Shown here: positions 51,001 through 62,855 of the stretch, piece after piece
Layout: each line of letters opens with the position of its first letter
Position numbering within the stretch: position 1 is the first letter of the stretch
DNA from: a virus
Lineage: Duplodnaviria > Heunggongvirae > Uroviricota > Caudoviricetes
Length of the DNA stretch: 62,855 nucleotides
Reading direction: 5' to 3' (one strand)
IMG/VR virus record: IMGVR_UViG_2534681831_000041
Made by a program: the position numbers

Positions 51001-54000
51001 ACGATATGATTGCCCATAGCCAGCCACTAATGGAAGCGCTTGGAAAAGCAATTGAGGCTGGCGATCAGGAGGCTGCAACGCGTCTGTTCGGGCAGCTGCC
51101 AAAGGGACATCCATTAATTCTTATGTCAAACGAAGGCTATGCAGCGAAAGCGGGTCAGGCCGTGATCAACCTGCAAAAAATCTTTGGTGATAAGCCGGAC
51201 ATGGCGATCGATTCGCTGAATACCCCGGAAAATCTCGATGTGCTTTCCGGCGTGTTTGCCCCGGAACTACAACAGCGTATTGGCATGCCTGATTCAACCG
51301 GGGAAAAAACGATAAAAGAGGCCAGGATTGGCAGTATCGTACCAGCGCAGCAGGAAGGGTACGTACTTATTGGCCTTGATCTCACATACAGCGATGGCTC
51401 CACCGCGCATAAACCTGTAACAGAATACGGCAGTGCGCACCCTGATGATCAAACCGTGCTGGCGATACCCGTTGATAAGGCTATCGCTCAGGTCAGGGAT
51501 CGCAGCAAATTTGCAGAGATATCGAAAAATTATGGTTATTTTATGCCGAAGCAGCAGGGACTTTCTCTGAAAGAGCTTCAGAAGGGGGCCAGCAACGTAG
51601 CGGCGGACGCGATCAAGAATGGCGGTAATGCTCAGGCTGCGGTGGATGAATATTATGCTGCGACTGGTTCACAACCGCATCAACAGAAAATTCAGCAACA
51701 AAAACTTCAGCAACAGGTTATCAACTGGGCGGGAGATGATCCTGATAAGCTGTCATTTGCCAGAAATGTAGCGGCCCGTCAGCCTGAAATGCTGGAACCT
51801 CAGAATCAGAAATTGCTGGAGAACGGGTATGCGAATTTTCTCCGTATTCAAAAGGCCAGGGGGGAACAGGCCAGAGATGAAAGTGCTTCATCTGCATCTC
51901 AGTTTATCCGTGGACTGAAACAGAATTACGCCCAGTAATTCACGATATTTGAACCGCCCCGGGTTTCCTGGAGAGTGTTTTATCTGTGAACTCAGGCTGC
52001 CAGATCATCGTTTCCGATGGAAGCATAATAAGCTTTTTCTGCTTCTGCCGGAGGAGTATGGCCCAGCCTTCCCAGCAATCGTCGATTGTTATACCAGTCC
52101 ACCCACGTTAGTGTGGCCAGTTCCACTTCTGCACGGTTTTTCCAGCTCTTACGGTGTATTACCTCCGCTTTGTAAAGACCATTGATGCTCTCAGCCATCG
52201 CGTTGTCATACGAGTCGCCTGTACTCCCTGTTGATGCCAGTAATCCGGCTTCTTTTAGTCGCTCCGTATAGGCCAGTGACACATACTGAGAGCCTTTATC
52301 GCTGTGATGGATGGTGCCAGACGGACGACGGGCCCACAACGCCTGCTCCAGCGCATCCAGCACGAATGTCGTTTCCATAGACGATGAGACCCGCCACCCC
52401 ACGATGTATCCGGCAAACACATCAATGATAAACGCCACATAGACGAAGCCCTGCCATGTGCTGACGTAAGTAAAATCAGCCACCCACAGCTGGTCAGGTC
52501 GTTCTGCCACGAACTGACGGTTTACGCGGTCGCCTGCGGCAACGGCTTTCCGGCTGATGGTCGTACGGACCTTTTTACCCCGGAGAACACCGGCAAGTCC
52601 CATAACCGCCATGAGACGTGCCACTGTACATCTGGCCACCCTGATTCCTTCCCGTAACAACTGACGCCAGACTTTACGCACACCGTACACCTGATGATTT
52701 TCATCGTATACGCGCTGTATCTCTCTCTTCAGCCAGTCGTCGTGCTGCGCACGGGCACTGCGTTTATCCGGATGATGTCGCTGTTGCTGACAATGGTAAT
52801 ACGTTGACGGGGCAATATGCAGTTCGCTGCATACCGGTCCGACCCCGTACTGCTCACGCAGCTTATCCAGCAGTGGCATCATTTTTCCAGAGGCGGTCGA
52901 ACTCCGCCTTCGCAAAATAAGCGGAAGCCTGGCGAAGGATATCGTTACTGCGGCGCAGTTCACGATTTTCACGTTCCAGCTCTTTCAGACGCTGACGTTC
53001 AGCGCTGGTGAGCCCACCATCACCGCCCCCGGTATCCCGCTCATGCTGGCGAACCCAGACACGCAGAGTCTCCGGCGTACAGCCAATCTTTGGGGCAATG
53101 GAACAAATTGCCGCCCACTGTGAGTCATATTCATCCTGACTTTCCAGAACCATACGAATCGCCCGCTGACGGACTTCGGGGGAAAAACGAGTATTTTTAG
53201 TCATCCTGTTTACCTCTTTCTCAGGGAGTTTAGTCTCCAGGATTTCCGGGGCGGTTCAATTCCATTAATACCATTTCCTGATGCCCGGCCATTGTGCCGG
53301 GTTTTTTTATGGAGTCTGTATGGCCTATTCAGAGGAACAGCGTCCTGAGGCGCAACTCGGTAACCAGAATCGTAACAGCCTGAACATTCAGCAACCCGGC
53401 GAAACTGACAGCTATGAAGCATTTTTCTCTGATCCGAATCGCTGGAAGGATAACAGTACGTCGTTCAGCCTGGGCGATGTATTGCCAACAATGGGTAAAG
53501 GTTTCGCCCAGTCCGTCCGGGGAACAGGGGAAATGGCCCGTGGACTCGGTGATGCGATGATTCAGAGCCCGGTAAAAACAGGGGCGCGTATTTTAAATGA
53601 GTTTAGCCGTATGGGGCTGCCGGGTGTCGCAACTGTGCAGGATATTTTTGCCGGTGGCAGCAGGGGGGCTGATGAGGTCATCGATACCCTGCCTGATGGC
53701 AAAAACGCGGTTACTGATACTGTCGGTAAAGGTCTGAAGGCAACCGGTAAGGCTGTCAGTGATGGTGCCAAAGCCACTGATGAATGGCTGACCGGTAAGA
53801 TGTCGCCGGGTGCAGTTCGTGCGCTGAATACGCCGATGACCGAAGGCTATAATGATTCTGCGGTCTGGGTGGCGAAGGGTGTAAACCTGATTGGTGCGCT
53901 TGTACCTGATATGGTTGCTGGCGGTGTGGCTAGAAAGGTGGGTGATGTCACACTGCGAAAAATGCTGACCGCCGGGCTGGAGAAAAAATACATCGCGGCA

Positions 54001-60000: not shown

Positions 60001-62855
60001 ACGTCGTATAACCCGGAATTCCTGGTCAGTAACTTCATCCGTGACGTGCAGACGGCGGTGATGAACCTGAAGGCGGAGCAGGGAAGGAGCGACGGTAAAC
60101 TGAAAGGGCTGGATAACTTATCCGCCCTGGCTGTGGTGAAAGACAGCCGTTCTGCCATGTCAGCCGTATACGCCAGTCTGCGTGGTAAAACCCTCACGGG
60201 AAAAGGTGCACAGTGGCAGAAGGTGTGGAAAGAGTTTGTTGAGGACGGAGGGAAAACCGGCTGGTTTAACATGGGTGACCTTGAAGGCCAGCAGAAGGAA
60301 ATGGATCGCCTTGTCTCACTGGCGAAGGGGGGATGGAAAGGCCAGAGTATCGGTGCATGGAATTCGTTCCTTAACCTTGTCGAGGATGCCAACGGTGCGG
60401 TTGAAAACGCTCTGCGTCTTTCTGCCTATAAGCACGCCCGTGATGCCGGTTTGTCACGCCAGCAGGCGGCGTCTCTTGCCAAAAACATGACGGTGAACTT
60501 TAACCGTCGTGGTGAGCAGGGGGCGCTGATGAATTCGCTGTACATGTTCGCCAACGCCAGCATTCAGGGAACGGCAAATCTGGTGAGAACGCTCGGACAT
60601 CTTAATGGTGAGGGACCTTTACTGGAGCGCCTTCGCTGGAAGAATCTGAATGTTCCGCAGAAAATCGCGCTTGCCGCTGTGGGAGCAGGTTATCTGCTTG
60701 GCTCGCTTAACCGCAGCGTGGCGGGTGAGAATGATGACGGGGTTAACTGGTATGATAAGGTGCCGTCTCATGTGAAAGAGCGTAACCTCGTCATTATGAA
60801 ATCGGTGTTCGGGGGCAAGGCCGGAGAGTACTGGAGTATTCCTCTGCCTTACGGGTACAACGTTTTCTTCCTGCTCGGGCATACTGCTGAAGGTGTGGCG
60901 GCGGGTGACCTGACGGCGTCCCGTGCTGCCGGTAATGTTGTTGGTGGTGTGCTTGGTGCATTCAGCCCGATTGGCAGTGAGACGTCGGAAACACTGTCCG
61001 GGGCATTGCTGAAAAATGCAGCGCCGACCATTCTGCGTCCGTTTGCGAACCTTGCCATGAATGAAAACTTCATGGGGGCGCAGATTTACCAGGAGAACAT
61101 GCCGTTTGGTACACCAAAACCTGACAGCCAGCTGGGAAGACGTTCAACGCCAGAAGCGTACAAGGCGTTTGCATCCTGGCTGAATGCGTTCTCTGGTGGC
61201 AGCCAGTACCGTCCCGGCGCGGTGGATATCACACCGGAATCGCTGAAATACTGGGTGGACTATATCTCCGGAGGGACAGGGCGCTTCATTTCCAAAACCA
61301 CGGATGCGGCGGTGAAATCGCTGAATGGTATTGATATACCGGAGCAGCAGGTGCCCTTCCTGGGGAAAATTTCAGGTGAGGTGATGCCGTATGCTGACCA
61401 GCAGAAGATGTACGACCGGATGACAGAGGTTGCGCAGTATCACGCAGAGCTGAAGAGTCTGACCGGTGCAGAAAGAACGGCGTTCATTGACGAGAACAAC
61501 GGAAAATTGTCGATGAACGGGCTTATGCAGGATACCCGGAAGAGACTGAAGGATTTGCGTAAACAGCGTGATGCCATTTACGCCGACAGTACTCTCAGTC
61601 TGGCGCAACAGTCGGCGATGGTGAAATCGGTTGAGCGGGATATGAAAATTGCCGTGGATCGGTTTAACCGCGAGTACAACAAAAAAGTGGGAGTGGAGTA
61701 AAGAACATGCCCCGTACGGAAGTGCGGGGCATGCTTAACGGGATGTGTACATAAATGGGTACGGATATGACGATTATTTTGGTGCTTTCTGTATTTAAAT
61801 CAATGAGTTAATACTTATATTCATTATATCCATTTAACTAAGAGGACAATGCGGCATGAGTATACCCGCTAATGGACTGCGGGGTAAGTACGCTGCCGCT
61901 CGATTGCTTAAACCCTCGCCATTTATGCTGGGTTTTTATCATTTTTCTTAATGTTTTCCGCACGTTCTGCTTTTTGGCGTGCTTCTGCTTTACGCTTGTT
62001 GCTCATGTCGTTACGAATCTGTGCATGACTCATTAACGCGAAGATAAAGGTGCCGCCGCAGATGTTCCCCGCTAAAGTAGGTAGTGCGAAGGGCCAGATG
62101 AAATCGCTCCAGTGCAGCGTGCCGTTAAACACCAGATAGAGGATTTCAACAGAACCGACAACGATGTGGGTGGTGTCACCCAGTGCAATAAGCCAGGTCA
62201 TCAAAATAATCACCACAATCTTTGCCGCACCCGCTGCAGGAAACATCCAAACCATAGTGGCGATCAGCCAGCCGGAAATGATCGCGTTGGCAAACATCTC
62301 GCTGGGGGTGTTCTTCATCACATCCATGCCGATTTTGACAAATGCATCGCGAGTTTCTTCATTGAAGATAGGCATATATTCAAATGCCCATGCAGCAATA
62401 CCTGTCCCGAGAATATTACCCAGCAGCACGACGCCCCATAATCGCATAAGTAAGCCGACGTTGCTCATTGTCGGTTTTTGCATGACGGGTAGTACCGCAG
62501 TCACGGTGTTTTCGGTAAATAATTGCTGGCGGGCCATAATGACGATAATAAAACCAAAGGTATAACCGAGATTCTCCAGTAAGAAGCTGCCTGGCACTCC
62601 TTCCAGTTCGACATGAAATATCCCTTTTGCCAGTAGCGAAGCGCCCATCGACAGACCCGCCGCAATGGCTGACCACAGTAGCGCCATTGCGTCGCGTTCC
62701 AGCTCTTTTTCACCATCCTGGCGGATATGCTCATGAATTGCCATCGCCCGGGAGGGGAGTCGGTCTTCATCTATTTCTATTTTTTTGCCGCGCTCTTTTT
62801 CTTCGCTCTCAACTTCAATTTCGTCGCTGTGTTGATCAATTTTGTCGTTGTCCAT

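Follow-up and report, generated by a model that had tools for sequence, protein, structure and literature searches.

A giant polyvalent protein of short-tailed Shiga toxin phages as a probable encapsidated protein expelled at infection

We analysed a 62,855-nucleotide (nt) stretch of viral DNA, IMG/VR record IMGVR_UViG_2534681831_000041, which is called the window here and carries a 61.2-kb prophage of the short-tailed Sepvirinae. The final gene of the late region of this prophage encodes a giant protein of 2,793 amino acids (aa). We conclude that the giant is probably an encapsidated internal virion protein of 933W/Sp5-type short-tailed Shiga toxin (Stx) phages and is expelled through the tail at infection. 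Published work revealed that its gene is essential, that DNA packaging is independent of the giant, and that the protein is present in virions but not in the ordered map. Our analysis contributes a domain map, conserved catalytic-type residues, fold matches, a module-plus-cargo pattern and an avoidance of cysteine that is common to proven ejected proteins. The gene is already known: genetic and proteomic studies of it exist, and its domains are annotated. What is added here is the correct location of the catalytic motifs, an architecture of frame plus cargo, a C-terminal fold without a solved relative and the family-wide avoidance of cysteine.

The genetic evidence comes from phage Sp5 of E. 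coli O157:H7 Sakai. In this phage, deletion of open reading frame (ORF) 80 (ECs1242, 2,793 aa) by Mondal et al. (2016, PMC5155283) yielded neither plaques nor lysogens. Excision, DNA packaging and head shape were normal, and complementation in trans worked. The deletion particles were not bound by an antibody against the tail fibre (ORF67), and the authors, who noted COG1483 as the sole homology, concluded that ORF80 is 'required for tail formation'. Deletion of ORF79 gave the same phenotype, and the Sp5 mutants were assayed on MG1655 only (PMC5155283). The proteomic evidence comes from phage phi24B. A 2026 preprint (10.64898/2026.04.10.717836) detected gp47 in abundance by mass spectrometry (MS) of purified virions, but gp47 was absent from all cryo-electron microscopy and negative-stain maps. 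The preprint lists LPD5, LPD1, LPD38 and 'a MuF-C metallopeptidase domain', and proposes an encapsidated ejection protein that digests peptidoglycan. The giant and the giant ORF of phi24B share 97% aa identity, and the virion association that had been expected from the sequence alone is borne out by this ortholog. In addition, a 2,198-aa LPD38 protein is essential in phage PTXU04. Since the giant of Sp5 and the LPD38 giant of PTXU04 are both essential, the core role of the giant looks structural or ejection-related. The sequence-only reading of the window had described the giant as uncharacterised and as a candidate for an unexplored effector that counters host defences. The first description does not hold, as the Sp5 deletion and complementation date from 2016, the virion proteomics of phi24B from 2026, and RefSeq already uses LPD5 and LPD38 names. 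The second is unsupported, as the gene is essential for infectious particles and the LPD38 giant of PTXU04 is essential too.

A mechanical call on the window gives an uninterrupted plus-strand ORF at 53281-61701, encoding 2,806 aa. We prefer the ATG at 53320 as the start, because GGAG is located five bases upstream of it (53311-53314), a hairpin and a T-run (53283-53309) precede it, and the resulting 2,793 aa are the published length of Sp5 ORF80. The 13 residues added in the longer form contain its only two cysteines. The chance of 2,793 stop-free codons at this base composition is about 1e-56. HExxH occurs twice, as HEWFH at aa 1284 (nt 57169) and HEIIH at aa 1551 (nt 57970), and is expected 0.04 times by composition in a protein of this size. 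Thus, the ORF list and the translation confirmed the uninterrupted ORF with two HExxH motifs that had been read from the sequence. A repeat search likewise agreed that the stop at 61701 is 120 bp ahead of the right copy of a 27-nt att-like direct repeat, whose two copies are 26/27 identical and flank the prophage. The gene had also been said to follow the tail/lom block; in fact, about six small genes and a 1,309-bp copy of the insertion sequence (IS) IS1203 lie between them. The hairpin upstream of the gene is strong and terminator-like and has seven pairs, six of which are G-C, followed by a run of seven T. It is located within the late operon, directly 5' of the ribosome-binding site (RBS) of the giant gene, is conserved in P13374, and is presumably read through under Q antitermination.

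A megablast search revealed 186 Stx-phage records that match the giant gene over its full length at 90% nt identity or more, including P13374, TL-2011c and VT2-Sakai (99.1%). The protein is annotated in these records as hypothetical or as 'LPD5 domain-containing protein', and in RefSeq E. coli genomes as 'LPD38 domain-containing protein'. It is matched over its full length by phrog_616. In TL-2011c (JQ011318 / NC_019442, 51518-60017) the match spans 8,500 bp in two pieces and two coding sequences are annotated, and the gene seems to be interrupted in this deposited phage.

Pfam identified four domains in the giant, all above gathering scores: LPD5 (E = 8e-45), LPD1 (aa 1361-1440, 1e-23), MuF_C (aa 1750-1839, 1e-17) and LPD38 (2e-48). 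The giant thus combines several unrelated effector-type domains with a late/virion-gene setting, and the suggestion that it is a large polyvalent protein proved right. Phage polyvalent proteins and their domain families were defined by Iyer, Burroughs, Anand, de Souza and Aravind (Iyer et al. 2017, PMC5512222), who term LPD5 'potentially enzymatic'. Pfam was also run on ten overlapping 400-aa segments at E <= 5, and structures were predicted for aa 1040-1860 and aa 1860-2793. The segment searches found no peptidase, lysozyme, ATPase or polymerase family, and their sole hints were at chance level (Peptidase_M76, E = 0.28; Gly-zipper, E = 2.5). A PDB sequence search with the whole protein found nothing (best E = 0.8), and PADLOC gave no hits. 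The profile searches and structure prediction that the sequence-only reading had proposed delivered domains and HExxH helices that follow strands, but no Pfam peptidase family. The same reading had mentioned long low-complexity segments. This is overstated: compositional bias is restricted to aa ~470-850, which are rich in E, P, A and Q, 19% hydrophobic and poorly conserved.

The first HExxH motif is flanked by LPD5 and LPD1, in a domain that resembles the CLCA_X family. The match to NCBIfam CLCA_X (NF041907) has E = 8e-44 and 150 bits, under the curated cut-off of 260 bits, and no Pfam peptidase family matches at this site. Across 49 homologs, H1263, H1284, E1285, H1288, D1291, E1375 and E1382 are conserved in at least 94%; H1284, E1285, H1288 and D1291 are found in 47-48 of the 49 sequences, E1375 and E1382 in 48. 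The motif G-x-G-S-L-A-H-E-W-x-H-x-x-D-N-Y-F is nearly invariant among them. The site also matches the phage-type metallopeptidase (MPTase) clade of Iyer et al. (PMC5512222), with an Asp three residues past HExxH and a His that ends strand 2. The helical C-terminal portion of this domain appears to correspond to LPD1. At the second site, H1551, E1552, H1555 and E1607 do not vary among 13 sequences, which reach down to 16% identity; this is a gluzincin pattern. Relatives of site 2 show HExxH or HExxxH, and the HExxxH variant was also described by Iyer et al. (PMC5512222). The AlphaFold2 model of aa 1040-1860 has a predicted local distance difference test score (pLDDT) of 78 and places each HExxH on a helix after two or three strands. 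In model residues, the helix of site 1 (243-260) follows strands 210-213 and 231-234, and that of site 2 (503-522) follows strands 458-462, 484-487 and 492-496 and is succeeded by further helices. Conservation and model together support the placement of both motifs in conserved, predicted zincin-type domains, in line with the metallopeptidase-like character first proposed for them.

MuF_C was described as a phage BECR domain (PBECR) and predicted to be an RNase (PMC5512222). In the giant, the family model matches, the predicted fold is of the BECR type, and the active-site configuration of His and Ser/Thr is conserved. This segment is thus predicted to be an RNase-like BECR domain, not a peptidase, and it may have RNase activity. 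The label 'MuF-C metallopeptidase' in the phi24B preprint is a misassignment, because the metallopeptidase motifs are located elsewhere and MuF_C is BECR.

The enzymatic domains are framed by two conserved modules. In the N-terminal module, hydropathy peaks at aa 181-208 and 407-425, where the sequence is hydrophobic and rich in Gly. When aa 1-1040 were searched exhaustively, aa ~100-570 were found to recur in giants of 1.5-4.7 kaa; the match begins within the first 245 residues in 46 giants. The same search showed that domain X (aa ~850-1040) recurs internally in giants. The C-terminal module behaves as a unit, as its homologs span 96-98% of it down to 32% identity. Its profile matches 42 of 93 giants, and the match always ends within 13 residues of the C-terminus. 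What precedes it varies, namely ArdC-N, methyltransferases, LPD3, GGDEF, MuF_C or almost nothing, and in some phages it stands nearly alone as a protein of ~900-1,000 aa. Both modules occur together in 23 giants, one of which carries a Strawberry-notch-type helicase in place of the Stx cargo. The predicted structure of the C-terminal module is a confident one. Besides these conserved ends, cassettes are exchanged among close relatives. In some E. coli variants, the RNase-like segment at aa ~1677-1876 (58348-58947) drops to 30-50% identity between flanks that are 98-100% identical. Domain X and LPD5 fall to 40-60% identity, and a second variable cassette covers aa ~830-1190. The swap of the RNase-like segment was seen in P0015, P0019 and P0023. 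Among the 186 deposited phages, 134 carry the RNase allele of the window at 99% nt identity or more and 40 at 80-90%, and four are without most of it (e.g., PhiR5_2). The picture that these alignments suggest is a fixed N- and C-terminal frame with exchangeable cargo between.

The giant contains no cysteine in its 2,793 aa. This is a family trait: 93 giant relatives, which total 262,227 residues, contain 28 cysteines (0.011%), and 79 of these relatives lack cysteine altogether. The other ORFs of at least 200 aa in the window contain 1.43% cysteine. Ejected proteins of other phages behave in the same way, as T7 gp15, T7 gp16 (its first 1,302 aa), N4 virion RNA polymerase (vRNAP, 3,500 aa), N4 gp51 and N4 gp52 have no cysteine and T7 gp14 has one. 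Our literature search found no description of cysteine avoidance in ejection proteins, and neither Iyer et al. (PMC5512222) nor the phi24B preprint (10.64898/2026.04.10.717836) mentions the lack of cysteine.

We propose the following mechanism. The giant would be made late and packed inside the capsid. At infection it would be expelled via the tail channel in extended form, either before the DNA or together with it. The N-terminal (aa 1-570) and C-terminal (aa 1860-2793, LPD38) modules, both of which have hydrophobic Gly/Ala-rich helices and might insert into membranes, would form the chassis for incorporation and delivery, and this chassis role would account for the essentiality of the gene. 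LPD5, the CLCA_X-type zincin, the second, small gluzincin and the BECR-fold RNase-like MuF_C would be exchangeable enzymatic cargo between the modules. After delivery, the two zinc peptidases would most likely cleave either the polyprotein itself or host proteins. The RNase-like domain could act on RNA early in infection, by cleavage or by binding. Cargo in relatives includes RNase, zincins, helicase/methyltransferase, ArdC-N and GGDEF domains, and such cargo might serve anti-defence or takeover of the host. A wider and much more tentative idea is that the cysteine-free N- and C-terminal (LPD38) modules are a general phage protein-delivery chassis without a solved relative, which threads tail and envelope with interchangeable enzymes. 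In Stx phages it would form an undescribed type of ejectosome together with four cysteine-free proteins encoded upstream, and the zincins would release the active RNase in the host.

Several observations weigh against ejection of the giant. Mutants of P22 and T7 ejection proteins usually still form tailed particles. Cysteine avoidance is suggestive as a sign of ejection but not specific, because the external fibres of this phage and the N4 capsid protein are also cysteine-free. The model of the C-terminal module is without a structural relative among solved ejection or core proteins, and a peptidoglycan-hydrolase domain was undetectable in the giant by Pfam, including the 400-aa segments. As for the cargo, the domain profile of site 2 gave only chance hits against PDB and the domain family nothing significant against Pfam; sites 1 and 2 align weakly with each other over a strand and the active-site helix (hhalign P = 0.0016, probability 16%), and this alignment is not relied on. 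The exit of the giant from the capsid is a step that we infer. The main conflicting observation is that anti-tail-fibre antibody failed to bind the ORF80-deletion particles, a result that Mondal et al. took for a defect in tail assembly.

The last observation leads to the alternative that the giant is a tail-assembly factor or a hidden tail component, needed to build or attach the short tail and not ejected (Mondal et al.). We regard this as unlikely. It accounts for lysates that contain DNA-filled, normal-looking heads without anti-ORF67 binding, and for the identical phenotype of the deletion of ORF79, the neighbouring gene. However, the phi24B map explains portal, adaptors, nozzle, needle and lateral fibres by other proteins, and gp47 is absent from it though abundant by MS. 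No tail-protein family matches the giant, and an architecture with variable cargo does not resemble that of an assembly chaperone. The Walker A motif is missing, so an 'AAA+ / energy-requiring step' is without sequence support. The AAA+ ATPase assignment itself (COG1483, Mondal et al.) was rejected, as [AG]xxxxGK[ST] is not found and no AAA family matches in Pfam or NCBIfam. A tape measure, which the sequence-only reading had named together with an ordinary tail component as what the ORF might turn out to be, was rejected too: no tape-measure family matches, the phage is short-tailed, and the giant is not any visible tail part.

It is somewhat less probable still that the giant is a purely accessory anti-defence effector, which protects incoming DNA like DarB, and that its essentiality is an artefact of plating O157-grown phage on restricting K-12. 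The giant is classed as a polyvalent protein, its N- and C-terminal modules are common to 'DarB-like antirestriction' giants (phrog_10089) and to the Strawberry-notch-type helicase giant, the RNase cassette is swapped between variants as in an arms race, and MG1655 was the only host on which the Sp5 mutants were assayed. On the other hand, the deletion removed both plaques and lysogens and altered antibody binding to particles, and the LPD38 giant is essential in PTXU04 as well. The C-terminal module stands almost alone in some phages, arguing for a basic function. The methyltransferase and helicase domains of DarB were not found in the giant, and PADLOC gave no hit. Membership in the P1 DarB family was rejected, as methyltransferase and SF2 helicase are absent from the Pfam, NCBIfam and PHROG matches and only the terminal regions resemble 'DarB-like' giants.

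The phi24B preprint proposes an ejection protein that breaks down peptidoglycan by its 'MuF-C metallopeptidase' and thereby lets a conduit reach the inner membrane. This proposal fits the virion association, the absence from the map and the lytic transglycosylase domain of some related giants (JC1 gp69), but it is very improbable, since it has no domain support and nothing in the giant resembles a cell-wall hydrolase. A relation to N4 vRNAP was rejected as well: the only match, phrog_2206 at E = 0.004, is at chance level and falls on the Ala-rich N-terminus, and a polymerase domain was not found. In summary, expulsion of an encapsidated giant is the reading we prefer, and the coordinates of the gene, its domains and its surroundings are listed in Table 1.

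Table 1. Coordinates in the window of the giant gene, its predicted domains and neighbouring features
Feature	Coordinates	Strand	Basis and remarks
Four cysteine-free genes (218, 148, 83, 421 aa) just upstream of the giant	49296..51938	+	No Cys in 870 aa; the 421-aa product is homologous to essential Sp5 ORF79
IS1203 (IS629-like, IS3 family), 1,309 bp, ATT target duplication (3 bp)	51950..53258	-	Breakpoints vs P13374; RefSeq 'IS3-like element IS1203 family transposase'
Terminator-like hairpin (53283-53302) and T-run, then GGAG RBS (53311-53314)	53283..53314	+	Sequence, pattern scan; identical in P13374 (no IS there)
Giant polyvalent virion protein gene, complete, 2,793 aa (= Sp5 ORF80/ECs1242, phi24B vb_24B_48/'gp47')	53320..61701	+	ORF list, translation, homology
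N-terminal conserved module, aa 1-570, Ala-rich, helical	53320..55029	+	Homolog alignment, hydropathy, phrog_37568 (1.7e-28); no Pfam family
Linker, poorly conserved, biased (E, P, A, Q-rich), aa ~571-850	55030..55869	+	Composition; few distant homologs align
Conserved domain 'X', aa ~851-1040, just before LPD5	55870..56439	+	Internal regions of many giants, E 1e-10 to 1e-21; no Pfam match
LPD5, aa 1051-1200	56470..56919	+	Pfam PF18799, E = 8e-45
Predicted zincin metallopeptidase 1, CLCA_X-like, aa ~1182-1440; HEWFH nt 57169-57183	56863..57639	+	NCBIfam, conservation, predicted helix
Predicted zincin metallopeptidase 2, aa ~1480-1660; HEIIH nt 57970-57984; candidate third ligand E1607 nt 58138-58140	57757..58299	+	Conservation, predicted topology
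MuF_C/PBECR, predicted BECR-fold RNase-like domain, aa ~1700-1845; cassette-replaced in some E. coli variants	58417..58854	+	
C-terminal conserved module, aa 1860-2793 (~930 aa); LPD38 aa 2476-2681 = nt 60745-61362; hydrophobic helices aa ~2445-2550	58897..61698	+	
Right copy of att-like 27-nt direct repeat	61821..61847	.	Repeat search; left copy 597-623

Immediately upstream, the four genes listed in Table 1 also encode proteins that lack cysteine, for which the chance is about 4e-6 at 1.43%. Terminase, portal, capsid and lom of the window contain cysteine. The four genes and the giant gene form a cysteine-free block, and therefore the four proteins are candidate partner ejection proteins of the giant. 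The 83-aa protein (50411-50662) is called 'bacteriocin' in P13374, and PHROG matches it weakly to parts of tape-measure and endolysin families. A 'bacteriocin homolog' was detected in virion preparations of phi24B and dismissed as a contaminant (10.64898/2026.04.10.717836). This is presumably the homolog of the 83-aa protein; if so, the 83-aa protein may be a true internal virion protein.

The IS1203 copy begins 11 bp past the upstream gene and ends 61 bp before the giant ATG; P13374 is without it. The element is inserted in the 30 nt that separate the ORF79 homolog from the giant gene, and the terminator-like hairpin and RBS of the giant gene remain intact. A pattern scan found no sigma-70-like promoter between IS1203 and the giant gene. 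Therefore, late transcription must cross the IS to express the giant gene. The insertion may lower the expression of two essential genes in the late phase. The same junction was observed in a few O111-type genomes, namely strains 8B and F765, and 95NR1 and 95JB1 at 97% coverage. Positions 1-180 of the window are identical to 53079-53258, the end of IS1203, so a second IS1203 copy is located at the edge of the window, immediately beyond the left att-like repeat. Near the left prophage end there is also a perfect 9-nt tandem repeat (GCTGCACTG, about 7 copies) at 2973-3044.

Giants of this type were also observed in distant elements. In a metagenomic phage (L003, 3386-14251), the giant-type gene is the last late gene before the integrase and is split into adjacent genes of 2,181 and 1,416 aa, with the LPD38 module in the second. 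Two small genes and the integrase follow, a position as in Stx phages. An Amphritea sp. contig (L002, 10001-12946) encodes a 981-aa protein that is almost only the C-terminal LPD38 module. Its host element is ~15 kb, integrase-flanked and has recombination and repressor genes, but capsid genes were not recognised in it; the element may represent a satellite or the remains of a prophage.

Shiga toxin genes are disseminated by short-tailed Stx phages, in which the giant gene takes up ~14% of the genome. The residue-level map, which places both zincin sites, the RNase-like cassette and the two terminal modules, makes point mutation and truncation possible instead of deletion of the whole gene. 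Family-wide absence of cysteine, common to ejected proteins of T7 and N4, is a cheap sequence marker that could help to find ejected proteins elsewhere.

Compared with known systems, the giant is the same protein, of the same length, as Sp5 ORF80 (ECs1242) and phi24B vb_24B_48, which is likewise encoded by the last late gene before attP. The window differs in that IS1203 parts the giant gene from the upstream late genes. The published descriptions of Sp5 and phi24B give COG1483 or four Pfam names, without the correct zincin sites, the terminal modules or the lack of cysteine. With the polyvalent proteins of Iyer et al. (2017), the giant shares LPD5, LPD1, MuF_C/PBECR, LPD38, two MPTase-type HExxH domains and the late-gene context. 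Those authors treat the domains as an effector network, whereas the giant has fixed N- and C-terminal modules around variable cargo and its gene is essential. Site 1 resembles CLCA_X, a predicted metalloprotease family (Lenart et al. 2013), in its HExxH-then-Asp motif and its occurrence in long phage/plasmid proteins. The consensus in that paper is written HExxHxxxD, and the Asp of site 1 lies three residues after the second His; the activity of the family is predicted. The closest known counterparts of the MuF_C domain are the C-terminal domain of phage Mu MuF (gp30) and BECR RNase toxins (RelE, BrnT, CdiA-CT), and the Stx copy differs in being embedded in a 2,793-aa protein. The copy of Mu itself is predicted to be inactive (PMC5512222).

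In behaviour, the giant is similar to T7 gp14/15/16 and to N4 vRNAP gp50 with gp51/gp52, which are likewise encapsidated, are needed for infection but not to package DNA, lack cysteine and are very large proteins whose genes close the structural region. There is no detectable similarity of sequence or fold, and the giant contains neither an RNA polymerase nor a transglycosylase domain; an MPTase domain was noted in N4 vRNAP too (PMC5512222). This likeness supports the view that the giant may work like these proteins, by analogy and not by membership. The DarB-like giant of the Bcep22-like Burkholderia podovirus JC1 (gp69, 4,515 aa) is related by sequence. It likewise has a C-terminal LPD38 module, is virion-associated by MS and is encoded in the morphogenesis module, and the portal, capsid and head-closure proteins of JC1 are homologous to those of 933W. 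Furthermore, phrog_10089 (DarB-like) matches both ends of the Stx giant. The two differ in their cargo, which is lytic transglycosylase, methyltransferase, helicase and LPD3 in JC1 gp69, and LPD5, two zincins and PBECR in the Stx giant.

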